Below are positions 4,030 through 54,999 of a stretch of DNA of 64,000 bases, piece after piece. The notes under the pieces were generated by a model that was not told the origin of the DNA, made no database searches, and saw nothing but the letters and a program-made list of their open reading frames with translations. A program made the position numbers and the translations under genes. Source of the stretch: Marsupella aquatica (Eukaryota > Plantae > Marchantiophyta); assembly GCA_973895155.1 (NCBI GenBank), contig OZ316892.1, forward strand, positions 1,367,223 through 1,431,222, written 5' to 3'. Each line of letters begins with the position of its first letter. Within the stretch, counting starts at the first letter, position 1.

Positions 4030-4192
4030 GCGTAATAATTTAGTTTTTATTTAACTCAAAAAAGCCTATATAAATGTAAGGTGATTATTATTAACTAAAA
4101 TCATTACATCAAAAATAAATTGCAAATAAATTTTCGATTCTACCAAAGCAATGCAATTCGCTTATATTTTGAATGATAGAACTATAGATTTT

Positions 4193-4954: not shown

Positions 4955-5179
4955 AATGTGAAAAAGTTTTTCGTCGGAACTCGGTTTCGATTTCGGATTT
5001 CAGCGTTGGCTTGCTAGGTTGGTGGGCTAAGTGGCGGTGACAAGTTTCAAGTTTTTTGGAAAGTTGCGAAAAACGACATTTTTTCGTGATTTGGATTTGA
5101 GTCAACGCAAAGGAAGGAAGGAAAAAGCATATAGGGAGCAGCACAGCAATAGCACGTGGAGAACGTTGGGAGGACAACG

Positions 5180-9267: not shown

Positions 9268-9471
9268 AGTAACTTAACAATATGTAATTTTTGTATATGG
9301 GTTACTCAATCCTGTTATGGCTACGGCTTAATTCTAGTTAACCCTTAGTTAACCTTAAATGGTTTTTAGGGGAACACCTATGATTTTAGGTGATTGTCTA
9401 GAATTTCCCGCTGAGTATCTCATATGGATAGCAGAAATTGCAGTCCCCAAGACTAGAGTCAAGGGGGAGTT

Positions 9472-30062: not shown

Positions 30063-32825
30063 TGTCGCGCCGCTAACCTGGGCCTTAAATCCAGTTTAGT
30101 GCCATGGTGAGACCTCGACCACCAGTAAGGGTGAGGGTTCGGGCAAGGAGGTGTGTAGTGACCTCAATTAGCCCTAAGTCGGGCTAAGTCGATATACTTA
30201 CCGGTATGACACCTGAATAATTCGTACTAGTCATAGGTATATTTGTTTTCCACCGCTGGAATATTCCCTCAGTTAGCGACTCGGACTAACTCCCGGCTTG
30301 GGGCCTTTCAAGCCATCGACATGACAGGACCTTGTGACATACAATGAGTGGCAATCCCTACCATTAGTCCGCACCCGGTACGTCCCTTAAAATGGCGCCT
30401 TTACCCAGACAAAGCATACACACAACACCAGTTACTTGCAGAAACATTAGGGGGACAAGACTACATTTACTCAGCGAAGCATCAGTTTACATGGTTGACT
30501 CGACTTCAAAGGGGGTCAGCAGGCCCAACGGCAGTCGATGCCCAGTCTCTACGAGGCCTTGCCTCGCACTTGCCCAGCAAGCTCGACTCTGGCTCTCACT
30601 CCTTGGTGCACTCTGACCCTGCTCAGGCCAGGACTCCCCGTGCCTCACCTTCCCTCTGCTGAGATAACTAAGCCTTCTCCCGCTTTCCATAGCGGAAGGG
30701 GAAGCCTAAATACTACAATCGCGGAGGAGAACCGGAGGATCCTACCTTCCGGGGTACTACCTATTGACTACTGGCCGCGCCGCACTGACTGGTTGACCGT
30801 CGACGACAAGGTGCTGACCGGGATGGCAGCGGCCAATCCTACTGACAAATTCTAGTCCGTTGATGGACTCCATCCTACGTTGGCTAATCCTAACTAATCC
30901 GGCCCTAATTCTTCTTATTGCCGCTAATCGGCGCCTAATTACAGTCATTCTGTCGTTACGCCTAACCAAAAGATGTCGCTGACTTAACTGCCTCGCGCGG
31001 CGCCTGCTTCCACCCTTCGCTAACTACCCCTTACGTGTGTGCAGTGGTTGGACCAGGGCTGGTCCCCTTGTCGGGACGAGACCTCGAGCCGCCTTGATCA
31101 GAGGTGAGCCCAGGTTTTCCCCGTTGGAGGACGAGCAGGGTAATGCGGTCCTGCAAGGCCTTGTTGTCCCGTACCGCCTCCTCCGCCTCATTTGCAGCTT
31201 CATCAGCCTCGGTCGGGAGCCGCGCTACCTCCAGATTGAGCTGGTCGATGGAGTCGCGATGGATCTGGTCCTGCGCTAGCAATTTATCTCGTTCGGCGGA
31301 GAGACTAGCCACCTGCTGTGCTGCCTGCAGGAGTTGCTTGTTGAGGTCGGTCAGGCTGGTAATCCGAGCCGAAGATTCTGAGCGTAATTGAAGCACGGTG
31401 TCGTCCAGCTTCTTGAGTTCAACCTGCGCTCCGCTTAACTCGTGGGTTAGTCCGTCCCTCTGTTCAACAGTGCGGACTAACTCCTCGTGGCGGGTAGTTG
31501 TCTCCTCCTCGAGGTGCTCTACCAGCATCTGGAGGCGCCCGATCTCATTCCCCTTCGCCATGAGTTCTTCTTCCAAGCGGCTTACGATCCGTGGTTGGTG
31601 CTCTAACATGAAGAAGGCTGGTTGAAAGTACACCGCGACTTGTTGTCCGATGTATGTAGCCAGCTCCCCAGACATAGTCTGGCTAAACTTCTGGACCAGG
31701 TCATAGGCCATGGTCCCCGGGGCTACTTGGTAGTCCTCCATCCTCTCGGGTACCGGTGGCTCCTCGGGTGGAGCAACGATCTCCTCTGTAGTCAGCGCTG
31801 GGGAGGGGAAGATATCTTCAGGTGGTGGAGGGATTGGGGGTGGTTGTACTGCGGGTAGTGGAGGCTCAACAGAAGGGGGCGGCGGAATTTCCACATGAGG
31901 AGGTGGCGGAGTATTAGTCGGGGCTTCCGGCTCGGGGTTTGCCCAAGGGACGGTAGTCCGTGTGCTCGGGGTTGCCCCCTCCGGGGTGGGGGTGACATTA
32001 GCCGGGGCTGAGGTGGCCATATTCTTTCCTCTGGCCTCCCGCCGTGCCTTGTACCAGGCGAGGATAATGGCGATATGACTTCCTAAGTAAGTCTTCCCCC
32101 CAATAGCCATACCACCCTGAGCCCGCTTCAGCTCCCCCGAGAATCTTCGGTAGAAGAATTGGGCCCAGTTTCGTCGCTTGTACTGTTGCACCTGCACGAT
32201 CGTGTAGAGGGAAATCTTGGATCGTGGCTCAATCATGTGTAGGGTAGTCCGTATGAAGTTAAGCCGCTCCATACAGGTTAAGTTGGTGCACGCCCCCTGC
32301 TTGTATCCGTTGTCCGTCTTACCCTCGGGTTTGAAGTGCCGCGGCGTATACTCCTTATCCCAAATTCGGATTTCCACCGGCACCGGCCCGGTTGGTAGGC
32401 AGAAGATTTGTGTTAACCGATGCTCCGTGAGTGATAAGGCCTGCCCCGAAACCTTGGTGGTCGACGCGTCAGTGTCAAAATTGGAGATGAACTCACAAAT
32501 CTCCTTCGGCCCGGTGGCGCACGGCCTCCATAGCAAGTGGGCGAACCGCTCCAACTGATGCTCCTTGAGATAGTCCGCATGTTTGAGTTTCTTGATCGCG
32601 ATCCAGACTACTTCGGGGATGCGGATTACCTGTAATAAGTTGGACTTCGGGTTATCCGGGGGCCGTCGGGTCTGGTTGGTCGGGGGGTTTGCCGGGGCAG
32701 GTGCAGGCGCGGCGTTGGTCCGCGTTGTTGATTCGGGGGCCATCATAGTCCTTGGCCGCTTACGAGGACGTTGTCTGGGGGGGAAAATGTGGTTCTTGAG
32801 GAAGCACCGGGCCTATGGCTGCTAG
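30063..32825 (-). mobile_element. GC-rich LTR-retroelement fragment, copy B, inserted into the DNMT-Gypsy coding region
   Basis: Same tgtcgcgccgct terminus as 23003; the DNMT-Gypsy reading frame runs right up to 30062. Confidence 0.8.
31031..32746 (-). CDS. Retroelement accessory protein (571 aa): N-terminal plant-transposon-type domain, Pro-rich linker, long coiled coil
   Basis: Intact ORF. LERFAHLLW..EICEFISNF..LSLTEHRLTQIFCLP resembles env-position accessory ORFs of plant Gypsy elements; second diverged copy at 24000-25053. Confidence 0.7.
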   Translation of the reverse strand: MMAPESTTRTNAAPAPAPANPPTNQTRRPPDNPKSNLLQVIRIPEVVWIAIKKLKHADYLKEHQLERFAHLLWRPCATGPKEICEFISNFDTDASTTKVSGQALSLTEHRLTQIFCLPTGPVPVEIRIWDKEYTPRHFKPEGKTDNGYKQGACTNLTCMERLNFIRTTLHMIEPRSKISLYTIVQVQQYKRRNWAQFFYRRFSGELKRAQGGMAIGGKTYLGSHIAIILAWYKARREARGKNMATSAPANVTPTPEGATPSTRTTVPWANPEPEAPTNTPPPPHVEIPPPPSVEPPLPAVQPPPIPPPPEDIFPSPALTTEEIVAPPEEPPVPERMEDYQVAPGTMAYDLVQKFSQTMSGELATYIGQQVAVYFQPAFFMLEHQPRIVSRLEEELMAKGNEIGRLQMLVEHLEEETTTRHEELVRTVEQRDGLTHELSGAQVELKKLDDTVLQLRSESSARITSLTDLNKQLLQAAQQVASLSAERDKLLAQDQIHRDSIDQLNLEVARLPTEADEAANEAEEAVRDNKALQDRITLLVLQRGKPGLTSDQGGSRSRPDKGTSPGPTTAHT

Positions 32826-34274
32826 TGTCAAGAGAGAACTTAAGTTAAGATCATGATTACTATTCTAGACTGGGTAGCAGACACCACAAGGAACGGTTCC
32901 GTGGATGAAAGCACAACATCATAACTCTTTTCTCCATACCTACGAACTATTGCCTCCTTGGCAGCTACCTTGGGTCGAGTTACAAAACGAATATCTCCCA
33001 ACGAGAAAGAAACGGGAGGCTCATCGGAGGGAGGTTTGTTGAGATCCATCTCAATACAAGATAAAAATTGTGCAAGCCCAATCCTGCCCGTAAACTACAT
33101 AAGGGTATACAATTGGCTCTATTGAATTTAATACCGCAGTTGCAAATGCTTCCCCAAAGTGAAAAGTCATATGCTAGCGCATTATCTCTTTTTAGAGTAC
33201 ATGAATTCTAATAAGGAAAGGATTAGGGAGAGGAAGAATAGGTACTGGTCTGGGCATTATCGTACTATCAAATATTCCATCCAACTAATTTTTATTCTAA
33301 TGACAAGAAATAGAATCATTCAACAAAAAGATCATCTATTTCAAACAAATATCATGCATTGAATTAACTCTAAGTATTTATACATGCAGACGTTTATCTT
33401 AATAGGTTGATCTTCTTTTGAATGAAAATACTATCTGAAGGTCCAACTCATACAAAATACCTCTGGCCGAGCCGAAACTCTAAGCAAGAGTGCATGAGTG
33501 GGTCTACTTCATAAGGATTTCACCCAAAAGGGAGCATATGATGTCAAGGCATTGTTGAGCACTTTCCAACTCTTTAGAACTTAATAACCATCTCCTATCA
33601 AATGACAACACTTTCTGAAGGTCCGACTCATACAAAATATCCCTGGCCGAGCCGAAGCTCTAAGCAAGAGTGCATGAGTAGGTCTACTTCATAAGGGTTA
33701 TATTCATAGAAGAGATCATCAAGTCCAATGGATTTTTAAGACTTCACAACTTAGTTGACGAAAAATGGGGAGTGAGGGGAGAGAGTCTCTCTCCTCTTTA
33801 TTTATAGTGCTCACACCTCAAGCACACGGATCAAGCATGGCACACGGATGGAAGCCATGTGCCACACATCCAAGGCAAGTAAGTGTGCTAGTACTGTAGT
33901 TACGTGAGTGGAGCAACTGTAGACAGTACACTGTAGTATGTACACTGTAGATCATACACTATAGCATGCATACTGTAGATCGTACACTGTAGCATGTACA
34001 CTGTAGATCGTACACTGTAGCATGTACACTGTAGCATGCACACTGTAGATCGTACACTGTAGCATGCACACTATAGGTCTTGCACTGTAGCATGCACACT
34101 GTAGATCGAATAATATAGCATGCATACTGTAGACCGTGTACTGTAGCATGCACACTGTAGGTTGTGCACTGTAGCATGCACACTATAGACTGCATATGCA
34201 AGAATTTAAACTACTATCCTATACTACTAAGCTATACTTAGGAGGAACTTACTAAACAAAGAATCCCCACGACA
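32826..34274 (-). repeat. 3' LTR (about 1.45 kb) of the minus-strand Gypsy
   Basis: Minus strand starts TGTCGTGG right after the PPT agtaggggtgata and ends TCTTGACA; TATAAAT at 33806-33800; internal ~82-bp direct repeats at 33434-33516 and 33614-33696. Confidence 0.7.
33890..34195. repeat. 14-bp-unit minisatellite (acactgtagcatgc / acactgtagatcgt) in the LTR U3 region
   Basis: About 20 degenerate tandem units visible. Confidence 0.9.
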
Positions 34275-34446: not shown

Positions 34447-37063
34447 TTACTCAATGAATATTTCTTCCTCTTGCTTTTCAGGTTCTTCATCTTCTTCTTC
34501 TTCTTCCTCTTCTTCCTCTTCTTGGTCTGAATCGATGGGATCTTCCTCTAAAAAACGTGTTCGCCTTTTGAATATTTTCACTCTTTTTCCTGCATAAGGC
34601 ACACGATGAATTGCTCCATCCAATTCACGGAGAGTGTAAGTGGAATTTGGGTGAGTAGTAACTACCACAAATGGGCCCCTCCAACGTTGTGCAAATTTCT
34701 TGATCGATGAGTGATCTTGTCCGAGACCGCCTTCAGAAACTAAGACCCAATCCTCTTCTTGGATTGTCTTGGGTCTCAATCGATGGGTCTTGTCAAAGCG
34801 GGATTTGTTAGCCATTCTCTTTTGCTTCAATTGTTTAATGGCACCTTGGATCTTTGTAGGAGTGTGATCAAACTGCTCTATGCGACGAAGAATCAAATCC
34901 TCTTGAGATACACCATCCTCCCACTCTATTGCCCTCCAACTATTAATGTCTTCTTCTATTGGCATGAGTGGAAGTTGACCATTGATCAACTCTGAAGGTG
35001 CATATCCTGTTACCGATGTGCAAGTTGTTCTGTGTGCCATGAGTGCTAGGGGAAGGAAATTTGGCCAAAATGAGGTTCTTCCCTTGCATGCCTTAATCAA
35101 GGCATTCACAATTGGTTGGTGTCCCCTCTCACTCTTGCCATTACCTTCAGGATTGTAAGCAGTTGTCAATTTGAGATTCACCCTAAACTTCCTGAAAAAT
35201 GCAACCGCTTCCTCTGCATTGAGCTCCCCTCTGTCTGCCCTCATGCGATCAAAGCATCCATACCTTGCAATGATGTCCTCCAATACAAATTTGCATATTG
35301 CCTCGGTCTTATTTGTTGTCAAGGCTCTACCTTCAATGTAAGAGGAGAGGTCCTCAATAGCCAAAACAAGGTACTTGGCTCCTCTTACTCCTCTCGGCAT
35401 GTGTACCACATCTACAGCCCATTGGTAGTGTAGGGAAAGAGGGTACGTGGGTTTTAGTCCATCTCTATGCTTCACCTTCGAATAGAGTTGACACACTTTG
35501 CAAGTTTCCACATACTTGCTTACATCTACATACATTCCTGACCACCAATATAGTCTTCGAATCCTTTCATAAGTAGCTTCTCGCCCCTTATGTCCTGCCA
35601 TGTCGGAATCATGTAAGTCATGTAAAATTTTGTGTTTCTCTTCATCTCTACCAATGACCCTTAGAAGTATGTGCCCCTTCTTCTTTGGATGCTTCCAAAG
35701 GGATCCACCTCTTACCATGAATTGGTAAGACTTCTTTCGAATTTTGTTGAAGTCTTGCTTACTCCATGTTGAATCTTTCTGCAACGTGGTAAGGTAACGT
35801 CCTATCTGTAACAATTCCCCAGAATAAGCTTCCTCTTCAAACCTCAATTCCCCTTCATCTTCTCCATATGTACTATGAAGGCACATTCCTTGGTCCTCCT
35901 CGTCCCTATAGCGAGCTCGGGAAAGCATATCAGCTACTGGATTATCTCTCCCAGCAATGTGCTTTAACTCAAGATTAAACATTCTAATGAATGCTATCCA
36001 TCAAAGCATTGCAATATCTGGAGTATCACAATTGGCTATCATTCCCAACAAGGGTAGGCAATCTGTCTCCAATATTACATTTGCTCCTATCAAATAGTCT
36101 CTTTCTTGGCGAAGTGCTACCTTCGCACCCCATAACTCTCGTTTTACTTGAGGATAATGCCTCTGTCTTTCTGTAAATATTTTTGCCCCAAACCGTGCGG
36201 CAAACCTTTGTCCTTCCTCATCTTGCCCAACTGCCCATCCAGATGCGTGAGGACTTGAGTCAATGGTCACAATTATTGGGTCAATACCATTGTACTTCAG
36301 AGGTCGTAATACCGGTGAGCTAGTCAAAGCTTCTTTCAATTGTTGCATAGCCTTTGTATGGCCTGCACTCCATACAAACCTCACATTCTTCCTTAGAAGA
36401 TCATAGAGAGGTTCTGCAATGTGAGCAAAATGTGGTATCCGTATTCTGTAGAAGATGCAGGCCCCAAGAAATCTCCTTACCTCTGAGGTAGTTCTGCAGT
36501 TCTCCATATCCTTGATGGCATCCACTTTTGCTTCACATGGTCTTCTTCCATAAGGGCCACAAACTTGCCCTACTACCATGATCTCTTGTAACCCGAAAGC
36601 TGACTTCTCTCCAGATAGAGTTACTCCTACTTCCTTGAGTCTTTGTAGAATAGCTCCCACATCTTGTAAGTGCTCCCACACAAACTGTCTTAGACCATCT
36701 CCTCTAAGTGTTTGATCCCTCTCCTTGTACAAACACCCTTTTATGGGGATGTCATCAAGAAAAGGTCTAGTCTTCTCTGGAACAAACGGTTGCAAAATCC
36801 TATTCATGGCATTTTGTATATGGGCCACTGAGTTAGTTGCACCTTGAGGAAGGGTGCACATTCTCAACAACCCTAGTGGCGTTCTCATAGCAGTAATGTC
36901 TCTGCTATCTTGGGCAAGCTAAAACTGATCATACCCTGAGTATAAGTCGCCAATGGAGTAGATTGCTCTCCCAGCAAACTCCTCAGCAAACTCATCCACC
37001 ACAGGTCCTGTGCCCACATTCCTTATGGTGACCTTGTTTGGTGGCTGCATGTCTTGAATGAAC
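34447..37063 (-). pseudogene. RT (3' part), RNaseH and integrase of the minus-strand Gypsy, with in-frame stops
   Basis: ORFs 36001..36888 and 34447..35982 are in frame across single stop codons; acidic C-terminal tail, no chromodomain seen. Confidence 0.88.
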
Positions 37064-40000
37064 TGTAGATAGGCAGTAATTCCAAAGTCATGAAGAAAAC
37101 CGGAAAATTTTTAAATTTTTGAAGTAGTTAAACTATATTTGCTGATAACTCGAGTAAACTAAACTCTGCCGAAGATTAAGAGTTTAAGAGTTGAAGAGTT
37201 AAAGTGTTTAAGAGTTTACGGGTTTACGAGTAAACCCTACTTTAATAGTTTAAGAGTTTAAGAGTTGAAGAGTTGAAGTGTTTAATAGTTTAAGAGTTTA
37301 AGGGTTTACGAGTAAACCCTACTTTAAGACTTTACGACTTTAAGAGTTGCGACTTGCGAACTGGCGAGCCCCGCGATTGTGACAGGCTACGGCTAACTCC
37401 AACGGGACTTTGCAACAAAACGAGGAGCAGGCCTTGAAGGGGGAGGAATCCAGAACATAGGCGCTCACTCCTGACTTCTCTTCCGCTGCATCTTTCATCG
37501 CTCTTGACTCCAAACAATTCTTCGCGTAGCTCAGTGAGCAGAATTTGAGCTATGGCTGACTTGAACGCTGATGCACAGTATCGTGTTCAAACTCTGGCAA
37601 TTCCTAAGAGTGTGGTCGCTCGAATTCCTTTGGCGCCCGACAATTGTGAAAATTTGAGAACATCGTTACAGCAGCTCGGATTGGAACATCTACTCGCAAT
37701 CCCTTGGAATGTGGAGCTCGACTCTTATTTACAGGATTTTGTGAGAGGATCACTGATTGCCCCTGAATTTCGACAAACCATTCGAGCTCGGCCAAGTTTA
37801 TGGACAGTTGAGCAAGTAGCTCATGCCTTCCGCTGCCCCTTAGATGGAGAAGGATTATATTCAAAGAAAAAAGATTTGTCCACTCCTTACTTTTCAGGGA
37901 TTCGCCATCCTACCAATGGCTGGAATGTGACACAATGTACCTATCCGGATTTGAGGATTCTTTTAGAATTTCTAGTGCCCATTCTCCATCCGAAGAGACC
38001 AACTATCTGCCCTGTGGCATTGGCGAATACTATCGTAGCTTCTCACAGTGGAGCTATTCAAGTAAATTGGGCGTTGTTACTTTTCAATGTGATGCACGAT
38101 CAGGTGAGAAGTATGAAGGCAGGCAGACCTACTTGTCTACAAGTCTATCTATCTCAGCTGTATCAAGCACATGACTGTTTACATCCGGAGGAGAAAACAG
38201 AAAGGGGATTACTTCTGATCGAGTTGGACATTGAGGAAGAAATTAGTGTAGCAGAATCAGAACAGGACATTCTGCTGAATTCCACTGATCAGGATGTTAA
38301 TATGGAGGATGTCTCGATAGATGGTTCGGAATTTCCCCCTGAACACAACATGGAGGTCATTTTATACTCTCCAAGAGAAATCAGTGGAGCAGATCAACTT
38401 GAAGCTGAAGGAGACGAGATTTTTCCTGAGCAACAAGAAGTCGTTGTTGAACCAACTATTACTGCCATACGAGGAGTCACCATGCCCCCTTTTTCGAAAG
38501 CAGAGTCAAATCAGCAGCTTATTGATAAGTTAATCTCTCTCTTCGGTTGCAGTGATGTTGAACTCTACGATGTTGTCTGTGATTTGAGATCCGAGGCAGT
38601 TAGCTTATCCTCTCCATTTCCAGATCAGCTAACCCCTGTCAGGACCGCTTCTCCCATTGAGAGGTCAGCACCAGAAGAATTTGTTGCTCTCACTCCTACT
38701 GTCCCACAGAATCTACCTCCAGAGCCAAGTGAACCTGTCTCAAGGATAGGAAACACAAGTTGTGTTGCAATTGTAACTGACCTACTGGAATTGCTTCAGT
38801 GTGAACCTGAGGAGATAATCTCTGTGGTTAGTGACTTAATTCCGAAGTACACAGAATTCAAAGGCCCTTCCAACCCGGGTGACTGCATTTATAGTCCAGA
38901 TTCCAATTATGAGCCAACCGAGGGACCTATTTATACCCAACCACAGTATGAACATCCTTCTGTTAGACAGGATCTTCCTGAGGATTCTGATCCACCCTCT
39001 GATTTTGATTCCATCCGATCTTATGACAACTCTGTCGAGTCGTCACCAAGGCAAGGATTTGAGGATGTTGACACTACCTTAAGATCTGATCCAAATTTAG
39101 TGGCAGTTGTCACCTCCTCTACTCAAACACCCCGGTATTCTGTCATTGAGAAAAGATATACACGACATCCAGAGTCTCAAGTGCAGAGGTACGTGGAGAC
39201 TTGTAAGATAATGCAGGCCAACAGACCCCCAATTGGAGAGTTTTGGAGATACTACTACCTTAAGAAGACTGAGGCCAGTTACATATTTGACCTCAGAAGT
39301 TTCGGAACTTCAAGAGTGGAGATGGCTCAATTTGATGAGTTCTGGGCTGACTCAATCTACTTCCGACCCATCCTTGCTATGATGCTACTTCAAGGGGATG
39401 TAGAAGTAGAAGATCCAGATTTGGTTTTGGCCTATTTCGGGAATTTTGCAGCTTACGCTCTGGACTTTGTGATTTCTTTTCTCATGCAGAGTAAGAAATC
39501 CACTTCTCACCAGAACTCTTACATCCCACGAGAGCCGAAGGTTGTCCTTGTTTCCACCAGTTCCCTAGCTGAGAAACAGAGGATCTGGAATAATGTCACT
39601 ACTCAGACCCTGGCTCATTTCAACCGATATTTTAAGGATGTCAGATGGAGACTTCGACCCTTCTATTCCAGGATGATGAATAGTGATGAGTTTCTGCATC
39701 ACTATCCCCAAGTATATGCTGCCACCTGCAACAACTATGATGTGATCGGGATGTACAGAGAAGCTCTTCGTATAGATTCCTATTATTTGATGAAGAGAAT
39801 GCCTTTGATGTATCCTGAGAGACAACTGAGGTGCCTACCATACTCCAGAGGATCCCCACGCCAAGCTAAGCTGATAGAGGTTACCCAGAACTGAATTGTT
39901 ACCCTTGTGGAGTTACTAGAACCAGAGGACATCCGACAGCAAGCTTGAAGAAGTCTCTAAGTGTTCTTAGTTAGTTTTTAGAGTAGTGCATCTTATCTGA

Positions 40001-41180
40001 TTTTTAGAAATGTGTTCTAGAGCTTTAGAAGCTGTCATACTTCTTTAGGCTGTAGTCTGTACCTAGGAAACCCTGCTGGAAAAATTTCAGAGTTTTCTGA
40101 ACCAGGAGTAGAAAGTTAAAAATAGTTGAATCTACTCAATTTTTAGTATACCGAAATTAAGAGTTTAAGAGTTTAAGTTTTTACGTTTTTAAGAGTTTAA
40201 GTTTTTACGTTTTTAAGAGTTTAAGTTTTTACGTTTTTAAGAGTTTAAGTTTTTAAGAGTTTAAGAGTTCATACTTACCCATTTTTTCCGGCTTTCCACT
40301 TACTGAATCGCCATTTTAAAATTTTGAGGGGTATGAAGAGGCATGTCTCTTCGACCCTGTGACCTCTTATTCTGTAGTTCATCACTATTTATACCTCTTT
40401 CCCTAGTGTAGAGAGATGGTTAAGTTTTGCAGTTTTGCCTCTCCCTTGTGTTAAACTAGTTGATCATGAATCTATGAGTTCGAGATCAGGTTTAACATTT
40501 GGAGAGACTTACCTCCTTCTTGTATTTTGGAACCCAAATACTTGAAGTAAAACCTCAGTTATGAATCTCGTGAATTATAATGTCAGATTCCGCTTTGGTG
40601 ACACATTGTAATCTCACAAGTTCTTAGAGTTAACTCATTGAGTTTAAGTTGCATTGGAAATGATGTTTTCACCTTCATGTTGCTTAGTACCATCTAAATG
40701 CTGAAGTATTTATCCTTTTAGATCTTGACTAAGTATCACTTAGGAAGAAAGGTCAAGACATGTTGCCGGCATTTTAAAAGGATACTCTAGTATGCAGTTT
40801 AGATCTGAAAAGCCGTGTGGATTTGGATTCCCTTAAAGTCATTCCATTATTACTTATGTCTAAGGAGTAACCTTGGTCTATTCCAGACTCCCTTAAGCAT
40901 ACTCTGAGAGATTTTTCCTTGTGTTTTGTTAATTGCAATCTTTTGCTTAATTGAAGGTTATCTGATGTTGAGTTATCATCAAAAACTACTCACCGCTGTG
41001 GAGCGATCTTCAAAGTACCTGATTAAAGTAGTCAAGATTGATTACTATGTGTGACACAAGAGCTTAAAGCTTTGTTTTTAGTTTATTACATCAAACCAAC
41101 CCCATCTTGTTCTTAAAGGGAACGAATACCGAGTTTAGAGACTTTAAAATGTGATTTTTGGTTCTCTATGGCAAACTACA
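37064..41180 (+). repeat. 4117-bp LTR, copy 1 (solo-LTR-like, flanked by TGAAC TSD)
   Basis: TGTAG...CTACA termini; tgaac at 37059-37063 and 41181-41185; near-identical to 50060-54176. Confidence 0.92.
37552..39894 (+). CDS. 780-aa accessory protein encoded inside the LTR (copy 1)
   Basis: Intact ORF; N-terminal domain LQQLGLEHLLAIPW...NGWNVTQC...LEFLVPILHP...VNWA, acidic/Pro-rich middle, aromatic-rich helical C-terminal domain. Confidence 0.85.
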   Translation: MADLNADAQYRVQTLAIPKSVVARIPLAPDNCENLRTSLQQLGLEHLLAIPWNVELDSYLQDFVRGSLIAPEFRQTIRARPSLWTVEQVAHAFRCPLDGEGLYSKKKDLSTPYFSGIRHPTNGWNVTQCTYPDLRILLEFLVPILHPKRPTICPVALANTIVASHSGAIQVNWALLLFNVMHDQVRSMKAGRPTCLQVYLSQLYQAHDCLHPEEKTERGLLLIELDIEEEISVAESEQDILLNSTDQDVNMEDVSIDGSEFPPEHNMEVILYSPREISGADQLEAEGDEIFPEQQEVVVEPTITAIRGVTMPPFSKAESNQQLIDKLISLFGCSDVELYDVVCDLRSEAVSLSSPFPDQLTPVRTASPIERSAPEEFVALTPTVPQNLPPEPSEPVSRIGNTSCVAIVTDLLELLQCEPEEIISVVSDLIPKYTEFKGPSNPGDCIYSPDSNYEPTEGPIYTQPQYEHPSVRQDLPEDSDPPSDFDSIRSYDNSVESSPRQGFEDVDTTLRSDPNLVAVVTSSTQTPRYSVIEKRYTRHPESQVQRYVETCKIMQANRPPIGEFWRYYYLKKTEASYIFDLRSFGTSRVEMAQFDEFWADSIYFRPILAMMLLQGDVEVEDPDLVLAYFGNFAAYALDFVISFLMQSKKSTSHQNSYIPREPKVVLVSTSSLAEKQRIWNNVTTQTLAHFNRYFKDVRWRLRPFYSRMMNSDEFLHHYPQVYAATCNNYDVIGMYREALRIDSYYLMKRMPLMYPERQLRCLPYSRGSPRQAKLIEVTQN

Positions 41181-42104
41181 TGAACCTTAGCTTCCCATTC
41201 TTCTTTCTCACCGTGAACCACCGATTTGAGTACGGAGCGTTTGATCTCTCAAGGATTTTGGCATCTAACTTCTCCTTGAGTAACTCCACCAATTTAGGCA
41301 TCAGTGCTCGTGGCACAGGAATTGGCTTAAGGTCCCAAGGAACATGTGGAACAGTGAAGATTACCATTGGTGTGATCTCCCTTGGATCAGCACATCCAAT
41401 CTCTCCAATGGAAAAGGAAAAGGCCTTTTCATGTTTGATGATCATCTCCTTGAAGGCTCTTCTCTCTTCCTCTAGTAAACCCTTATCACCAATCTTTAAT
41501 TTGAGCAACGTCTCCTCAGTGAATTTATGCCCAATCTTAGTACGATCTCTAAGACTTGGCTCCTCCTTTGCCCGCCTCAATATTTCCTTAGCCTCAGATG
41601 GCAAGGGAACTGCTGCAGGTCGCACCTTCTTGTCCACTGTTTTGTACTTTGTGTGTACTTCTGCAAAGCGCTCAATGTAACCATACACATCCCTTTCCAC
41701 CTCCACTTCTCCATTTTCTTCCTCAATGTCTCCAATAATCTCTCGAAGAGAGGGTGGTAATTCCCTTTCCTCGAGTACTCCTTCTATTCTCGCTTCAACC
41801 TTCAACACTCCTAATGTGAACAAATCTTTTTCTTTCTTTTCCAACATCTTCTGAGCTCGCCTCTTCACACCACCTTTATGAAAATAGCTCACTTCACTAG
41901 TCCTACTCACACCAACAAAAGAGGAATGAACCTCCATAGACGAGACTAAAGGCTTGGCGTCCTGCCTGCTCGTTTCTCTTAGCGGGACGCCTAGTCGAAA
42001 CCCTTCATACTCTGATCGGACCTGTACTCCTCCACTGTTCTTAATTCCCGATGATCTCTTGTACTACCTGGCCAAAGTGTGGGAAATTGAATCTTCTTCA
42101 AGTC
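41181..42104. repeat. 924-bp duplicate of the host-Gypsy flank (same as 54177-55100)
   Basis: Identical translations (41176..41937 = 54172..54933); identity ends at tcttcaagtc. Confidence 0.92.
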
Positions 42105-42127
42105 GATTACAAATTCGATCTTTCACA

Positions 42128-43129
42128 ATGGAAAATGCACCAGAGGCATTTAGGGAGAGATTTGGAGGTGAAACTCCTCCCTCAATTTTGGAAAGAAAGA
42201 GAAAAGCTAAAGCCAAGAAGGAAAGACGAAATGGGGCTTAGTGGGGGAATATCCTTCCCAAGAAAGAGATGGTGAGGAAAAGCAGACCTCAGAAAAGAGA
42301 AAGAGCCTTGATTAGGTCAAGGGATAATCAAACACACACGATTATCAGTGCCACTGCAAGAGAGAGAACAACTATTTTGAGAAGGCAGGTGTCCAACATC
42401 AGAGGAGGAAGCTACTTTTGGGGTGGCGAATTGGTGAAGGTTGACTCCTGGGACACCAATATTTTGTATGATTGTGTATTTGTTTTCAGAAGAGCCCTAG
42501 ATGGAAGACTGGAATTGATTGAAGCCACTCAAGATGAGGAATTTGATGCCAATTTTATTCCCCCCTTACTAAAAGAACATGACATTAAGGAGGAAGTATT
42601 GGAGGAGGAACTTGAACATCAATTAAGGGAAACGTTGGATAAGTTAAAAGGGAATCCATTGTGGAGAAACCAACTTGATTATGTTTTAACAGAGTTTTAC
42701 CAGAATAATCCCAATTTAATACTTAGGGAGGAAAGACCAGTTATGACCTCCAATAGAAGAGAGTTGGTTGACACTTGTAAATGGCATGCCGGAAGTGGAT
42801 GGGTTCCATTGAAATGGAAGGAGGCAACTACCCAAAGGACATCCTTTAAGTGGACCATCCCACTCCCTCACTGCTCTGAATTAACTGATGTAATGGTTTT
42901 TAAGAGAGTTTGGATTGATGATGAGGAATACAAGTTGTAGCCCATTAAGGAAGAACATGATTTAGAATTTTTAATAAGCAAGAAGGGGCAAATTAGTAAC
43001 AGGGTTACTGAAGAAGAAGAACTAAGAATTAAGGAGGTGTTGGAAAAATTACACCTTGTTGAACACCCTTGGGTTGATGCCCTGGACACTCTAGAAAAAT
43101 TGTTAAACAACTACCGGACCTCAGCATAA
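42128..43129 (+). pseudogene. Extra ORF upstream of gag in the long-LTR Gypsy, interrupted by two in-frame TAG stops
   Basis: MENAPEAF...(TAG 42239)...ORF 42269..42940...(TAG)...PIKEEHDLEFL...RTSA* all in one frame. Confidence 0.6.
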
Positions 43130-43901
43130 AAGAGGACAACAGAGGAGCGGATTTCCCCAAATTACAATCTTGATTTCAACTTTGAATAAGCAATTTGGTG
43201 AAATAATTGAAATGCCTCCAATCAGGTCTTTAGGCACTTTGAGAGTAAGAAATTTGCATAATCGGTATGTTCAAACATGGGTACTGTCCCTAAGAGGACG
43301 AAGGGGTGTTCATTGGTTATCTATTACCTGGTGGGAAGGAGGCATTTTGCATCTGGTTATTTTAAAGTTAAATGGTAGAATTACAGGAGAAGAGTATGTT
43401 ATCATTTCTATACAAGAATTAGCTAGATCCTTGCTTCAAAGGCAAACTAGGAGACACAGATAACATTAGTTAGGCCAAGAAATTTGTTAAGTACACCTAC
43501 TCTCCTAAAAATGGGCGCTGCCGAGAACTGAAGGGACGGCATTACGAGTAAGCCTTTACGTTTTTTTTAGAGTTGAAGTTTTACGAGTAAACATACTCGA
43601 GTAAGGGTATAATAGTTGACGACTTACGAGTTGCGAGTTGACGACTTACGAGTTGAAGGGCCGCGATGAACAGGCGCGCCACTTCAACACTTGACCACTC
43701 GCTGCGACTGTTGGGGCGTACACCCCCTGAGGGTTACGAGAAGAGGCGCCATCAAGGGCCACGACGGTGCGAAAGGGTGCCAGCGGGAGGAACAATGGAA
43801 GAACGTGACCCCTCCATGCAAACTTAGACTCCCAAAGGAAACCAGAGTCAGTCCCAAACCATTAACTCGCTCCTGAAGATTGCCGACTTTCAGGATGAGG
43901 A

Positions 43902-50046: not shown

Positions 50047-50059
50047 GAGGAGAGGGCTA
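50047..50059 (+). other. Polypurine tract
   Basis: gaggagagggcta directly before the TGTAG start of the LTR. Confidence 0.8.
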
Positions 50060-53000
50060 TGTAGATAGGCAGTAATTCCAAAGTCATGAAGAAAACCGGA
50101 AAATTTTTAAATTTTTGAAGTAGTTAAACTATATTTGCTGATAACTCGAGTAAACTAAACTCTGCCGAAGATTAAGAGTTTAAGAGTTGAAGAGTTAAAG
50201 TGTTTAAGAGTTTACGGGTTTACGAGTAAACCCTACTTTAATAGTTTAAGAGTTTAAGAGTTGAAGAGTTGAAGTGTTTAATAGTTTAAGAGTTTAAGGG
50301 TTTACGAGTAAACCCTACTTTAAGACTTTACGACTTTAAGAGTTGCGACTTGCGAACTGGCGAGCCCCGCGATTGTGACAGGCTATGGCTAACTCCAACG
50401 GGACTTTGCAACAAAACGAGGAGCAGGCCTTGAAGGGGGAGGAATCCAGAACATAGGCGCTCACTCCTGACTTCTCTTCCGCTGCATCTTTCATCGCTCT
50501 CGACTCCAAACAATTCTTCGCGTAGCTCAGTGAGCAGAATTTGAGCTATGGCTGACTTGAACGCTGATGCACAGTATCGTGTTCAAACTCTGGCAATTCC
50601 TAAGAGTGTGGTCGCTCGAATTCCTTTGGCGCCCGACAGTTGTGAAAATTTGAGAACATCGTTACAGCAGCTCGGATTGGAACATCTACTCGCAATCCCT
50701 TGGAATGTGGAGCTCGACTCTTATTTACAGGATTTTGTGAGAGGATCACTGATTGCCCCTGAATTTCGACAAACCATTCGAGCTCGGCCAAGTTTATGGA
50801 CAGTTGAGCAAGTAGCTCATGCCTTCCGCTGCCCCTTAGATGGAGAAGGATTATATTCAAAGAAAAAAGATTTGTCCACTCCTTACTTTTCAGGGATTCG
50901 CCATCCTACCAATGGCTGGAATGTGACACAATGTACCTATCCGGATTTGAGGATTCTTTTAGAATTTCTAGTGCCCATTCTCCATCCGAAGAGACCAACT
51001 ATCTGCCCTGTGGCATTGGCGAATACTATCGTAGCTTCTCACAGTGGAGCTATTCAAGTAAATTGGGCGTTGTTACTTTTCAATGTGATGCACGATCAGG
51101 TGAGAAGTATGAAGGCAGGCAGACCTACTTGTCTACAAGTCTATCTATCTCAGCTGTATCAAGCACATGACTGTTTACATCCGGAGGAGAAAACAGAAAG
51201 GGGATTACTTCTGATCGAGTTGGACATTGAGGAAGAAATTAGTGTAGCAGAATCAGAACAGGACATTCTGCTGAATTCCACTGATCAGGATGTTAATATG
51301 GAGGATGTCTCGATAGATGGTTCGGAATTTCCCCCTGAACACAACATGGAGGTCATTTTATACTCTCCAAGAGAAATCAGTGGAGCAGATCAACTTGAAG
51401 CTGAAGGAGACGAGATTTTTCCTGAGCAACAAGAAGTCGTTGTTGAACCAACTATTACTGCCATACGAGGAGTCACCATGCCCCCTTTTTCGAAAGCAGA
51501 GTCAAATCAGCAGCTTATTGATAAGTTAATCTCTCTCTTCGGTTGCAGTGATGTTGAACTCTACGATGTTGTCTGTGATTTGAGATCCGAGGCAGTTAGC
51601 TTATCCTCTCCATTTCCAGATCAGCTAACCCCTGTCAGGACCGCTTCTCCCATTGAGAGGTCAGCACCAGAAGAATTTGTTGCTCTCACTCCTACTGTCC
51701 CACAGAATCTACCTCCAGAGCCAAGTGAACCTGTCTCAAGGATAGGAAACACAAGTTGTGTTGCAATTGTAACTGACCTACTGGAATTGCTTCAGTGTGA
51801 ACCTGAGGAGATAATCTCTGTGGTTAGTGACTTAATTCCGAAGTACACAGAATTCAAAGGCCCTTCCAACCCGGGTGACTGCATTTATAGTCCAGATTCC
51901 AATTATGAGCCAACCGAGGGACCTATTTATACCCAACCACAGTATGAACATCCTTCTGTTAGACAGGATCTTCCTGAGGATTCTGATCCACCCTCTGATT
52001 TTGATTCCATCCGATCTTATGACAACTCTGTCGAGTCGTCACCAAGGCAAGGATTTGAGGATGTTGACACTACCTTAAGATCTGATCCAAATTTAGTGGC
52101 AGTTGTCACCTCCTCTACTCAAACACCCCGGTATTCTGTCATTGAGAAAAGATATACACGACATCCAGAGTCTCAAGTGCAGAGGTACGTGGAGACTTGT
52201 AAGATAATGCAGGCCAACAGACCCCCAATTGGAGAGTTTTGGAGATACTACTACCTTAAGAAGACTGAGGCCAGTTACATATTTGACCTCAGAAGTTTCG
52301 GAACTTCAAGAGTGGAGATGGCTCAATTTGATGAGTTCTGGGCTGACTCAATCTACTTCCGACCCATCCTTGCTATGATGCTACTTCAAGGGGATGTAGA
52401 AGTAGAAGATCCAGATTTGGTTTTGGCCTATTTCGGGAATTTTGCAGCTTACGCTCTGGACTTTGTGATTTCTTTTCTCATGCAGAGTAAGAAATCCACT
52501 TCTCACCAGAACTCTTACATCCCACGAGAGCCGAAGGTTGTCCTTGTTTCCACCAGTTCCCTAGCTGAGAAACAGAGGATCTGGAATAATGTCACTACTC
52601 AGACCCTGGCTCATTTCAACCGATATTTTAAGGATGTCAGATGGAGACTTCGACCCTTCTATTCCAGGATGATGAATAGTGATGAGTTTCTGCATCACTA
52701 TCCCCAAGTATATGCTGCCACCTGCAACAACTATGATGTGATCGGGATGTACAGAGAAGCTCTTCGTATAGATTCCTATTATTTGATGAAGAGAATGCCT
52801 TTGATGTATCCTGAGAGACAACTGAGGTGCCTACCATACTCCAGAGGATCCCCACGCCAAGCTAAGCTGATAGAGGTTACCCAGAACTGAATTGTTACCC
52901 TTGTGGAGTTACTAGAACCAGAGGACATCCGACAGCAAGCTTGAAGAAGTCTCTAAGTGTTCTTAGTTAGTTTTTAGAGTAGTGCATCTTATCTGATTTT

Positions 53001-54176
53001 TAGAAATGTGTTCTAGAGCTTTAGAAGCTGTCATACTTCTTTAGGCTGTAGTCTGTACCTAGGAAACCCTGCTGGAAAAATTTCAGAGTTTTCTGAACCA
53101 GGAGTAGAAAGTTAAAAATAGTTGAATCTACTCAATTTTTAGTATACCGAAATTAAGAGTTTAAGAGTTTAAGTTTTTACGTTTTTAAGAGTTTAAGTTT
53201 TTACGTTTTTAAGAGTTTAAGTTTTTACGTTTTTAAGAGTTTAAGTTTTTAAGAGTTTAAGAGTTCATACTTACCCATTTTTTCCGGCTTTCCACTTACT
53301 GAATCGCCATTTTAAAATTTTGAGGGGTATGAAGAGGCATGTCTCTTCGACCCTGTGACCTCTTATTCTGTAGTTCATCACTATTTATACCTCTTTCCCT
53401 AGTGTAGAGAGATGGTTAAGTTTTGCAGTTTTGCCTCTCCCTTGTGTTAAACTAGTTGATCATGAATCTATGAGTTCGAGATCAGGTTTAACATTTGGAG
53501 AGACTTACCTCCTTCTTGTATTTTGGAACCCAAATACTTGAAGTAAAACCTCAGTTATGAATCTCGTGAATTATAATGTCAGATTCCGCTTTGGTGACAC
53601 ATTGTAATCTCACAAGTTCTTAGAGTTAACTCATTGAGTTTAAGTTGCATTGGAAATGATGTTTTCACCTTCATGTTGCTTAGTACCATCTAAATGCTGA
53701 AGTATTTATCCTTTTAGATCTTGACTAAGTATCACTTAGGAAGAAAGGTCAAGACATGTTGCCGGCATTTTAAAAGGATACTCTAGTATGCAGTTTAGAT
53801 CTGAAAAGCCGTGTGGATTTGGATTCCCTTAAAGTCATTCCATTATTACTTATGTCTAAGGAGTAACCTTGGTCTATTCCAGACTCCCTTAAGCATACTC
53901 TGAGAGATTTTTCCTTGTGTTTTGTTAATTGCAATCTTTTGCTTAATTGAAGGTTATCTGATGTTGAGTTATCATCAAAAACTACTCACCGCTGTGGAGC
54001 GATCTTCAAAGTACCTGATTAAAGTAGTCAAGATTGATTACTATGTGTGACACAAGAGCTTAAAGCTTTGTTTTTAGTTTATTACATCAAACCAACCCCA
54101 TCTTGTTCTTAAAGGGAACGAATACCGAGTTTAGAGACTTTAAAATGTGATTTTTGGTTCTCTATGGCAAACTACA
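50060..54176 (+). repeat. 4117-bp 3' LTR, copy 2
   Basis: Preceded by the PPT; TGTAG...CTACA termini; followed by the tgaac TSD and host RT sequence. Confidence 0.92.
50548..52890 (+). CDS. 780-aa accessory protein encoded inside the LTR (copy 2)
   Basis: Translation identical to 37552..39894 except one N/S change. Confidence 0.85.
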   Translation: MADLNADAQYRVQTLAIPKSVVARIPLAPDSCENLRTSLQQLGLEHLLAIPWNVELDSYLQDFVRGSLIAPEFRQTIRARPSLWTVEQVAHAFRCPLDGEGLYSKKKDLSTPYFSGIRHPTNGWNVTQCTYPDLRILLEFLVPILHPKRPTICPVALANTIVASHSGAIQVNWALLLFNVMHDQVRSMKAGRPTCLQVYLSQLYQAHDCLHPEEKTERGLLLIELDIEEEISVAESEQDILLNSTDQDVNMEDVSIDGSEFPPEHNMEVILYSPREISGADQLEAEGDEIFPEQQEVVVEPTITAIRGVTMPPFSKAESNQQLIDKLISLFGCSDVELYDVVCDLRSEAVSLSSPFPDQLTPVRTASPIERSAPEEFVALTPTVPQNLPPEPSEPVSRIGNTSCVAIVTDLLELLQCEPEEIISVVSDLIPKYTEFKGPSNPGDCIYSPDSNYEPTEGPIYTQPQYEHPSVRQDLPEDSDPPSDFDSIRSYDNSVESSPRQGFEDVDTTLRSDPNLVAVVTSSTQTPRYSVIEKRYTRHPESQVQRYVETCKIMQANRPPIGEFWRYYYLKKTEASYIFDLRSFGTSRVEMAQFDEFWADSIYFRPILAMMLLQGDVEVEDPDLVLAYFGNFAAYALDFVISFLMQSKKSTSHQNSYIPREPKVVLVSTSSLAEKQRIWNNVTTQTLAHFNRYFKDVRWRLRPFYSRMMNSDEFLHHYPQVYAATCNNYDVIGMYREALRIDSYYLMKRMPLMYPERQLRCLPYSRGSPRQAKLIEVTQN

Positions 54177-54951
54177 TGAACCTTAGCTTCCCATTCTTCT
54201 TTCTCACCGTGAACCACCGATTTGAGTACGGAGCGTTTGATCTCTCAAGGATTTTGGCATCTAACTTCTCCTTGAGTAACTCCACCAATTTAGGCATCAG
54301 TGCTCGTGGCACAGGAATTGGCTTAAGGTCCCAAGGAACATGTGGAACAGTGAAGATTACCATTGGTGTGATCTCCCTTGGATCAGCACATCCAATCTCT
54401 CCAATGGAAAAGGAAAAGGCCTTTTCATGTTTGATGATCATCTCCTTGAAGGCTCTTCTCTCTTCCTCTAGTAAACCCTTATCACCAATCTTTAATTTGA
54501 GCAACGTCTCCTCAGTGAATTTATGCCCAATCTTAGTACGATCTCTAAGACTTGGCTCCTCCTTTGCCCGCCTCAATATTTCCTTAGCCTCAGATGGCAA
54601 GGGAACTGCTGCAGGTCGCACCTTCTTGTCCACTGTTTTGTACTTTGTGTGTACTTCTGCAAAGCGCTCAATGTAACCATACACATCCCTTTCCACCTCC
54701 ACTTCTCCATTTTCTTCCTCAATGTCTCCAATAATCTCTCGAAGAGAGGGTGGTAATTCCCTTTCCTCGAGTACTCCTTCTATTCTCGCTTCAACCTTCA
54801 ACACTCCTAATGTGAACAAATCTTTTTCTTTCTTTTCCAACATCTTCTGAGCTCGCCTCTTCACACCACCTTTATGAAAATAGCTCACTTCACTAGTCCT
54901 ACTCACACCAACAAAAGAGGAATGAACCTCCATAGACGAGACTAAAGGCTT

Positions 54952-54999
54952 GGCGTCCTGCCTGCTCGTTTCTCTTAGCGGGACGCCTAGTCGAAACCC
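54952..54999 (-). promoter_or_regulatory. Candidate -1 programmed ribosomal frameshift signal (duplicate at 41956-42003)
   Basis: Slippery heptamer G GGT TTC in the PR frame, 5-nt spacer, stem GGCGTCC/GGACGCC; the -1 frame opens into the RT ORF. Confidence 0.7.

Follow-up and report, generated by a model that had tools for sequence, protein, structure and literature searches.

A probable Athila-type accessory gene within the long terminal repeats of a Marsupella aquatica Ty3/gypsy element, encoding a candidate sequence-specific anti-silencing factor

The element and its long terminal repeats

The window analyzed here, 64,000 nucleotides of Marsupella aquatica contig OZ316892.1, contains a retrotransposon inserted into the reverse transcriptase (RT) of a minus-strand gypsy host element (Table 1). 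We found that the unit at 37064-41180 begins with TGTAG, ends with CTACA and recurs at 50060-54176, that between the pol stop (50030) and the second copy there is a purine tract (50047-50059), and that TGAAC at 37059-37063 and 54177-54181 interrupts the host RT. The termini, polypurine tract (PPT) and 5-bp target site duplication (TSD) given in a preliminary description of this DNA are therefore confirmed. In addition, the empty insertion site, seen as a joint skipping 4122 bases (4117+5), is present in 4 of 4 public runs from 4 studies. By its TG...CA termini, the PPT before the 3' copy, and the TSD with its empty site, the unit is a long terminal repeat (LTR) of a Ty3/gypsy element.

In full, the direct repeat spans 5041 bp (37064-42104 is the same as 50060-55100); LTR copy 1 continues as TGAAC and the 924-bp host right flank, and no primer-binding site (PBS) directly follows the 5' LTR within the window. 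Elsewhere, one X1 contig and one X2 contig continue after 41180 with PBS-like TGGCGCCGCTG, a different flank follows 41180 in one X3 contig, and the PPT-to-LTR junction is present in X5. We attribute the duplicated flank behind copy 1 either to a rearrangement that arose later in this copy or to an assembly join; none of the listed contigs bridges 42104/42105, where single-copy joins could escape detection. Only three differences separate the copies (37390, 37505 and 37643), all within the first 580 bp. The open reading frame (ORF) is intact in both, as was described, but because the copies are identical after 37643 the one intact ORF offers no independent confirmation of the other, and together they amount to about a single observation.

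Pfam searches of pol identified RT, a single RNase H region and integrase, with no chromodomain and no extra archaeal-type RNase H, the latter judged from Pfam rather than a dedicated aRH profile. The non-Met PBS TGGCGCCGCTG, found in sister copies and in the related loci L001, L004 and L005, is presumably of tRNA-Asp type. A chromodomain-free RT-RNase H-integrase pol, a non-Met PBS (here in sister copies) and a 5-bp TSD are shared with the Athila clade (PMC6317226, PMC7264820, PMC11728184), as are a long LTR (known up to ~5 kb), a sense ORF directly after pol, an extra polypurine tract (here in relatives) and probable distant similarity of the N-terminal domain. Athila elements are non-chromovirus OTA Ty3/gypsy elements with a 3' sense extra ORF, PF03078 / PF20167 (PMC6317226, PMC7264820, PMC11728184), and PMC2829016 reports an extra polypurine tract in Athila4/Calypso. 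In the Athila clade the extra ORF is internal, between pol and the 3' LTR, whereas here it is wholly contained in the LTR, 3' of the PPT in use; it also differs in its sub-Pfam-threshold similarity, lack of a clear transmembrane helix and novel C-terminal domain.

Table 1. Coordinates of the element and associated features within the window
Feature	Position	Strand	Remarks
Left TSD TGAAC	37059..37063	+	in RT of minus-strand gypsy host element; from sequence and empty site
5' LTR copy, 4117 bp	37064..41180	+	same as 3' LTR after 37643
Motif cluster 1, 11 copies of TTA[AC]GA[GC]T	37176..37347	+	upstream of ORF
780-codon accessory ORF within LTR	37552..39894	+	P0001 71% identical, full length
N-terminal domain, aa 1-226	37552..38229	+	predicted VANC21/PMD-like fold; probable distant Transposase_32/ATHILA ORF relative
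Acidic, Pro/Ser-rich variable middle	38230..39153	+	in-frame 84-codon deletion tolerated in other copies
Conserved C-terminal domain	39154..39891	+	no known family
Motif cluster 2, 7 copies	40157..40268	+	downstream of ORF
Possible second-tract relic	40309..40338	+	not significant; 51/500 shuffles reach score
Exact 924-bp copy of right flank (54177-55100)	41181..42104	+	replaces PBS and internal-region start
Leftover 5' internal region	42106..43132	+	long frame interrupted by two stops; perhaps another accessory ORF, on the 5' side
Motif cluster 3, 4 copies	43542..43653	+	upstream of gag
gag-protease ORF, 1069 aa	43902..47111	+	
RT-RNase H-integrase ORF, 962 aa	47142..50030	+	no chromodomain match
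Polypurine tract	50047..50059	+	straight after pol
3' LTR, 4117 bp	50060..54176	+	second ORF copy at 50548-52890
Right TSD TGAAC	54177..54181	+	

The accessory protein and its relatives

The long ORF noted previously (37552-39894) encodes 780 aa and takes up 57% of the LTR. Its stop-free frame spans 781 codons, compared to a longest of 208 in 500 LTR shuffles, and the remaining five frames of the LTR contain 35-60 stops. The protein of the family is probably slightly longer, given that the stop position (39892) differs in most public contigs and that the homologue P0001 extends ~19 residues beyond the end of the window ORF. Identity to P0001 is 84% in the N-domain, 79% in the C-domain and 58% in the middle, and among public contigs the ORF shows an in-frame loss of 84 codons and two pairs of 1-base indels that compensate each other. 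Since the N- and C-domains are conserved above the middle, and both the deletion and the indel pairs preserve the frame, our data suggest selection on the protein. Hydropathy revealed no clear transmembrane helix in the ORF protein (highest 19-residue value 1.53) and gives no support to an ENV-like membrane protein. A simple scan of the sequence 5' of the ORF found no TATA-like match; the ORF likely lies in U3, given that it adjoins the PPT.

The gene is not of a new kind but probably a remote member of the Athila-type accessory ORFs already described. We found 330 related proteins (E≤0.001), and of 80 related loci, 6 carry an N-domain homologue 3' of pol (E 8e-43 to 9e-4). Among N-domain matches in the ESM Atlas, 23 of 30 were Transposase_32 (score 0.90-0.91, 156-172 shared features), and the N-domain matched a profile of L006, L063 and a 571-aa ORF of the window (ORF571) with a probability of 85% (E 6e-6); compared directly by BLASTP, the 780-aa and 571-aa ORFs gave E 0.17. 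L006 and L063 match PF20167 at E 2e-4, and P0140 matches the Transposase_32/ATHILA Pfam families at E 0.014, in each case below the cut-off. The window protein itself has no match to Pfam DUF1985, PMD (PF10536), Transposase_32 (PF20167) or ATHILA (PF03078), and 39 aligned family members likewise fall short of the gathering scores of PF20167 and PF03078. For the C-domain, all ESM matches were below 0.9 and there was no Pfam or PDB sequence match. N-domain profiles found nothing below E 0.1 among PDB sequences, a word-based search with the N-domain alone returned 0 of 198 candidates, and a metagenome scan with a two-sequence ORF alignment yielded 203 pattern matches, 0 of them confirmed.

Structure prediction of the N-terminal domain, suggested in the preliminary description, returned a confident model (pLDDT 92.9, pTM 0.90) with a VANC21-like fold. 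VANC21 ranked first of 48,161 chains, with 201-204 of 226 residues aligned at an rmsd of 4.0-4.2 and a Z of 7.5-7.7, which is below the threshold of 8 of the fold tool, at a sequence identity of 10%. It was the only match with a Z of at least 5; the runner-up reached Z 4.1 over 59 aligned residues. Foldseek gave VANC21 a TM of 0.47 (E 1.1), and the other matches listed were all below 0.2. The N-domain had no match at E≤0.001 in a viral fold library, and a model of the full-length ORF from 2 sequences (pLDDT 28.7) was of no use. As a moderate match, these searches suggest that the N-domain shares the VANC21 fold; all of them start from one predicted model, and a shared fold proves no function. 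The best reading of sequence and model is that the ORF is an LTR-borne, Athila-type accessory gene and likely encodes a sequence-specific anti-silencing factor.

Polypurine tracts and the position of the gene

As first described, the ORF lies in an unusual position, wholly within a true LTR. The sag gene of MMTV is a protein gene in both LTRs, while HIV nef merely overlaps U3; both are retroviral and unrelated, and encode much shorter proteins with immune functions. We asked how relatives are arranged. In L001, one contig contains a tract, the ORF, a second tract, TG, ~1 kb, CTACA and the PBS, with the ORF outside the LTR, as in Athila; the second tract outscores 300 of 300 shuffles. By eye, L006 and L010 likewise have two tracts and an ORF that is not part of the LTR. 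L004 and L005 have a one-tract layout in which the sequence following the tract repeats, in inverted orientation, the LTR end next to the PBS, and L009 has no second tract within 1106 bases 3' of the ORF. Judging from contigs, none of which spans a whole LTR, four relatives (L004, L005, L007 and L009; 56-58% integrase identity) probably carry the ORF inside the LTR as here. A single origin of this layout is unsupported by a 16-row tree (75/87) from which near-duplicates or long branches had been dropped (L013, L014, L015, L018, L019, L046, L063 and the host integrase); an earlier 24-row tree was a quick tree only, and both comprise unnamed loci only.

Both layouts are directly observed, and from them we infer that the ORF likely became part of the LTR through a shift to the upstream tract. 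Relatives have one tract after pol and another after the ORF. If plus-strand synthesis were primed at the first tract, all downstream sequence would join the LTR, and the gene would therefore be copied to both ends. Neither a second tract nor an old LTR start has left a significant relic in the window: a candidate start at TGTAG 40051 was rejected, with 134 of 2000 shuffles and 23 of 498 window controls scoring equally high. The tract shuffle test is weak, because it failed to detect the L006 second tract (228/300), which can be seen by eye.

Recombination between LTRs would leave the gene and two motif clusters, and LTRs, including those left after excision of the element, likely each keep a gene, ORF-deleted variants excepted. 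One such variant, with 37484 joined directly to 39619, is present in X6 and, as a loose end, also in X2. Since this LTR is without the full gene, not all LTRs retain it, and the earlier statement that every solo LTR keeps a gene copy was too broad.

Motif arrays and a putative anti-silencing role

The motif TTA[AC]GA[GC]T, chosen post hoc once arrays were seen, occurs in three clusters, with 22 copies in 2735 non-coding bases of the element, 0 in 8472 coding bases and 3 in 45,963 bases elsewhere in the window. L001, L004, L005 and L009 have their own, differing family-specific motifs in several non-coding parts, such as AGCGCTA in L001 and TCCGGA in L004, and no motif arrays were found in L006, L010 or the ORF571 unit within the stretches tested.

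This organization resembles that of VANDAL21, a MuDR DNA transposon (PDB 9LNK/9LNJ; PMC5735166). VANC21 is likewise encoded by a transposable element (TE), its fold is predicted to be shared over 201 of 226 residues, and short motifs lie in non-coding clusters that differ between families; that paper reports that VANC21 binds motifs within non-coding tandem repeats. In contrast to VANDAL21, the window element is a retrotransposon whose protein has no DUF1985 match, and binding and demethylation are putative here. VANC is described as dicot-specific in PMC13547354. PMD proteins (Gypsy-encoded PMD-A, host MAIN/MAIL1) provide another case of a Gypsy-borne chromatin-type domain; PMD-C is said to resemble the VANC domain, and TE-encoded PMDs have been proposed as anti-silencing factors (PMC5418596; bioRxiv 2024.09.27.615353). 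The window protein differs in having no PF10536 match, its link to PMD being the shared VANC fold alone, and in its position in the LTR, whereas Ogre PMD ORFs are internal.

With slightly better than even confidence, we propose that this Athila-like Ty3/gypsy element gained the accessory gene of its 4.1-kb LTR through a PPT switch, and that the VANC21-fold N-domain binds the element's own arrays and counters silencing. The protein would be a nuclear DNA-binding factor, with a VANC/PMD-like N-domain, an acidic linker and the C-domain, and would act in cis and in trans on the clusters on either side of the ORF and ahead of gag. It may in this way shield the element from silencing. The earlier guess of a silencing suppressor gains support from the moderate fold match and the motif arrays, but the function stays putative.

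More tentatively, a plant Ty3/gypsy lineage may have made its LTR a self-contained anti-silencing cassette, composed of a VANC-fold gene and its own arrays, with solo LTRs emitting a trans factor. If true, solo LTRs, normally the host's route to disarming an element, would keep producing a trans-acting factor that unsilences the family, and annotation pipelines would take them for normal host genes without introns. By changing its plus-strand primer, an element could in a simple way bring a whole gene into the LTR, where it would outlast solo-LTR formation. Furthermore, Athila/Transposase_32 accessory ORFs would gain a VANC-like function, and the fold would occur in retrotransposons far beyond eudicots. 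The role of extra ORFs in plant gypsy elements is a long-standing question (PMC7264820) and for Athila is still to be investigated (PMC12844716); this locus offers a direct test, with a well-modelled domain, a named counterpart in VANC21 and a candidate 8-base target.

It is possible, though we consider it rather unlikely, that the same anatomy serves another job, either in replication or integration (nuclear import, tethering of the integration complex, target choice) or as an oligomerising scaffold, with the arrays acting as ordinary promoter or enhancer repeats. Functions of plant accessory ORFs are unsettled, nuclear and retroviral-accessory-like roles having been proposed (PMC7264820), and host PMD proteins both aid silencing and counter Polycomb. 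Tandem arrays are common in the non-coding regions of non-chromoviruses (PMC6317226), the minus-strand host element carries a motif array (17 copies) without the ORF, and the C-domain is left unexplained. Nevertheless, the sole solved structure that matches the whole N-domain is that of an anti-silencing protein on its target DNA, and the family-specific motifs of L001, L004, L005 and L009 are distributed as in VANDAL families.

An improbable alternative is that the position in the LTR arose by chance, in a few copies or in a young subfamily primed at the upstream tract, that it brings no advantage and that the gene tends to be lost from such LTRs. The ORF-deleted variant in X6 and X2 fits such an accident, as does the close relative L001, which keeps the ORF outside the LTR. 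Furthermore, the summed depth of the LTR 3' part is 4-8 times that of the ORF start, and the ratio of ORF to internal contig depth, ~2.8 in X2, is below 2 in X1 (~1.3) and X5 (0.65). Against this, depth at 37182 is near that of the LTR 3' end (795 vs 865 in X2, 2106 vs 3080 in X1) and far exceeds the internal region, so many LTRs seem to start at the upstream tract, with the caveat that 37182 falls in a motif array and depth is a weak measure. The four relatives at 56-58% integrase identity also share the layout.

Finally, the near-perfect 5041-bp repeat running into host DNA, the missing PBS and the unbridged 42104/42105 junction could mean that the unit was misassembled, is a nested insertion or is a small non-autonomous element of its own, but this is very improbable: an assembly error accounts for the flank duplication alone, the empty site, the PBS and other flank after 41180 and the PPT-LTR junction of X5 are seen elsewhere, and the unit is neither nested nor non-autonomous because the ORF begins within the stretch of copy 1 that has private differences and ORF homologues follow pol at 6 loci.

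An accessory gene within the LTR

The gene described here is a distant Athila-type accessory gene within the LTR of an Athila-like Ty3/gypsy retrotransposon; its product is predicted to have a VANC-like domain, and a short motif is its candidate target. The source organism may be a non-seed plant. MMTV sag and HIV nef are LTR-associated genes. Both LTR copies begin with TGTAG and end with CTACA, and between them sit a gag-protease ORF and an RT-RNase H-integrase ORF. The polypurine tract adjoins copy 2 on its 5' side, 17 bases past the pol stop, and the 5-bp duplication TGAAC surrounds the whole block, which splits the RT of a gypsy element lying on the minus strand (the host element). The termini, the tract before copy 2 and the duplication in the host RT are as the preliminary description had them. 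The empty insertion site was found as a 4122-base skip in contigs of all four runs (four studies).

In a second contig comparison at the LTR ends (four runs, three studies), sequence past 41180 was TGGCGCCGCTG in one contig each of public runs X1 and X2 and a different flank in one X3 contig; X1 and X2 contigs differed from the window upstream of 42106, and at 42104 contigs of X1, X2 and X3 ran on into the host element. These continuations suggest that sister copies are normal LTR-PBS elements, their primer-binding site (PBS) presumably matching tRNA-Asp, and place the LTR end at 41180. A 47-base stretch near this end also occurs in much more abundant sequences of each of the four runs examined (summed depth about 26,000 in X1 and X3), and we read it as an LTR motif conserved in other families.

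The 780-codon ORF comprises 57% of the LTR; the longest stop-free run in 500 LTR shuffles was 208 codons. Its product is conserved, being 71% identical to the homologue P0001 (84% over aa 1-215, 79% over aa 541-780 and 58% in the acidic region between them), and variants in public contigs preserve the frame: one deletion amounts to a net 252 bases, and two pairs of indels compensate each other. HMMER, run as a full scan, gave 330 relatives at E<=0.001, most of them through the N-domain (aa 1-226); the C-domain was matched by 16 of 182 proteins scanned and both domains by 2. C-domains seem to be swapped in the family, as the pol-related locus L001 (6450-8170) and the proteins P0058 and P0067 join the N-domain to a C-terminal domain other than that of the window protein.

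Contig depth, a weak measure of copy number, was 291 for the ORF contig versus 98-124 for five internal contigs (198 for a sixth) and 865 for the LTR 3' end in X2, the run that most resembles the host sequence of the window; the ORF and internal values were 1238 and 846-1018 in X1, and 63 and 91-105 in X5. One LTR variant (joint in X6, loose end in X2) lacks most of the ORF; the gene is not retained by all LTRs. It is rather doubtful that the gene would stay active from solo LTRs.

Features of the window
Feature	Position	Strand	Remark
Copy 1 (5' LTR)	37064-41180		
Copy 2 (3' LTR)	50060-54176		
Target site duplication	37059-37063, 54177-54181		TGAAC
780-codon ORF	37552-39894		
C-domain	39154-39891		
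Joint of ORF-poor LTR variant	37484 to 39619		
47-base stretch shared with abundant sequences	41090-41136		
Possible second accessory ORF	42106-43132	+	about 340 codons, two stops
Host element 3' LTR (likely)	33037-34272	-	about 1.2 kb
Second repeated unit	30063-32746	-	
Second repeated unit, left copy	23003-25053	-	cut at 5' end
Bacterial-looking ORFs	205-4780		
Apparent plant copia element	about 5200-9300		
Junction between the two	near 4900-5200		

Possible rearrangement of copy 1

The 4117-bp length proposed for the LTR stood, and the direct repeat is actually 5041 bp. After copy 1 come 924 bases of right flank, one extra base and the internal region, and it lacks a PBS; the element in the window is likely not autonomous. 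The 3 positions at which the copies differ all fall in the first 580 bases, which an even spread would give with a probability of about 0.003 by post hoc arithmetic. Copy 1 therefore resembles a 5' LTR that acquired its 3' part from the 3' LTR and the adjoining flank; repair, a solo-LTR allele joined to a full allele, or assembly may be the source. Since the ORF start lies within the privately differing part of copy 1, the original 5' LTR already contained the gene.

Position of the gene in related elements

Among 80 related loci gathered by a pol scan, 6 carry an N-domain homologue shortly 3' of integrase, all within the nine best pol matches. The single contig L001 reads pol, tract, 742-aa ORF, second tract, TG, about 1 kb, CTACA, PBS and gag, and in L006 and L010, whose ORFs are more distantly related, a tract and TGTAG directly follow the ORF. 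This places the ORF of these three loci outside the LTR, as in Athila; PMC2829016 mentions an additional tract in Athila4 and Calypso. In L004 and L005, the bases past the post-pol tract (TGTGGGAGC) repeat in inverted orientation the LTR end that adjoins the PBS, and 0.5-0.7 kb separate them from the ORF start. L007 and L009 begin in the same manner after this tract, and a second tract is absent from the 218 and 1106 bases, respectively, 3' of their ORFs. These four loci, read from contigs covering part of the LTR, probably have the window's in-LTR layout. The simplest route into the LTR, and quite probably the one taken, is that plus-strand priming moved to the upstream tract. The integrase tree (75/87) allows a single origin but falls short of establishing it, and the window holds no significant relic of a second tract. 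In L012-L015, the pol frame extends >400 codons past integrase into a protease-like stretch, an unusual domain order.

The preliminary description placed accessory ORFs usually between pol and the 3' LTR or upstream of gag, in agreement with the plant literature covered (PMC7264820, PMC6317226, PMC3485330, PMC11728184, PMC2829016, bioRxiv 2024.09.27.615353, PMC13547354, PMC5735166, PMC5418596, PMC12844716, PMC12859917). Titles and abstract openings, with few subscription papers among them, contained no report of a gene within a plant LTR; the supplements of PMC6317226, where extra ORFs are listed for each element, may bear on this.

Predicted fold, candidate motif and neighbouring features

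The window protein had no Pfam match. ESM Atlas neighbours of the N-domain (0.90-0.91) carried Transposase_32 in 23 of 30 cases and included ATHILA clusters. A profile of seven N-domains matched a second profile, built from L006, L063 and the 571-aa ORF in the window (probability 85%), and L006 and L063 weakly matched PF20167. We had sought a VANC link before the fold results because PMD-C was reported to resemble the VANC domain. For an N-domain model built from 39 sequences (pLDDT 92.9), VANC21 bound to its target DNA was the sole match with Z>=5 among 48,161 solved chains (Z 7.7 and rmsd 4.0 across 201 residues, against Z 4.1 across 59 for the next chain), and two further fold comparisons, all on this one predicted model, were concordant. 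The match, a moderate one that in itself shows no function, suggests a VANC-like fold; we lean towards the protein being a DNA-binding chromatin factor.

The candidate target motif TTA[AC]GA[GC]T, picked post hoc once arrays had been seen, occurs 11 times before the ORF, 7 times after it and 4 times before gag, with 0 copies in 8472 coding bases and 3 in the remaining 45,963 window bases. Different motifs are enriched in non-coding parts of L001, L004, L005, L007 and L009, and VANC21 and VANC6 bind family-specific motifs in non-coding tandem repeats (PMC5735166). Against a target role, besides the post hoc choice, no such array was found in the stretches tested of L006, L010 and the 571-aa-ORF unit, and the host element, without the ORF, also carries an array. 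That the protein would counter silencing at its own arrays is a prospect just short of even. Anti-silencing by TE-encoded PMDs is speculation in the sources (bioRxiv 2024.09.27.615353 among them), and titles and abstract openings, with few subscription papers, contained no report of retrotransposon VANC-like factors.

The second repeated unit, whose copies share 93.6% identity across 2052 bp and end in GCGCGACA, encodes the 571-aa ORF; the N-domain of this ORF is a distant relative of the 780-codon ORF family. The 5' end of the unit was not found, and it is possibly another ORF-bearing LTR family. The frame upstream of gag has a basic NLS-like stretch, no Pfam match and no homologue among the 80 loci. 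The bacterial-looking ORFs, an M36 metallopeptidase with PA domain and Por secretion tail (E 2e-134) and a 195-aa ORF, run directly into the apparent copia element, which may reflect a contaminant join, chimeric contig or transfer. The host element's likely 3' LTR contains an internal duplication of 180 bp and an array of 14-bp tandem repeats, with CTACAGT present 17 times; the 5' end of the host element is lost near 56790, with LINE-like ORFs next.
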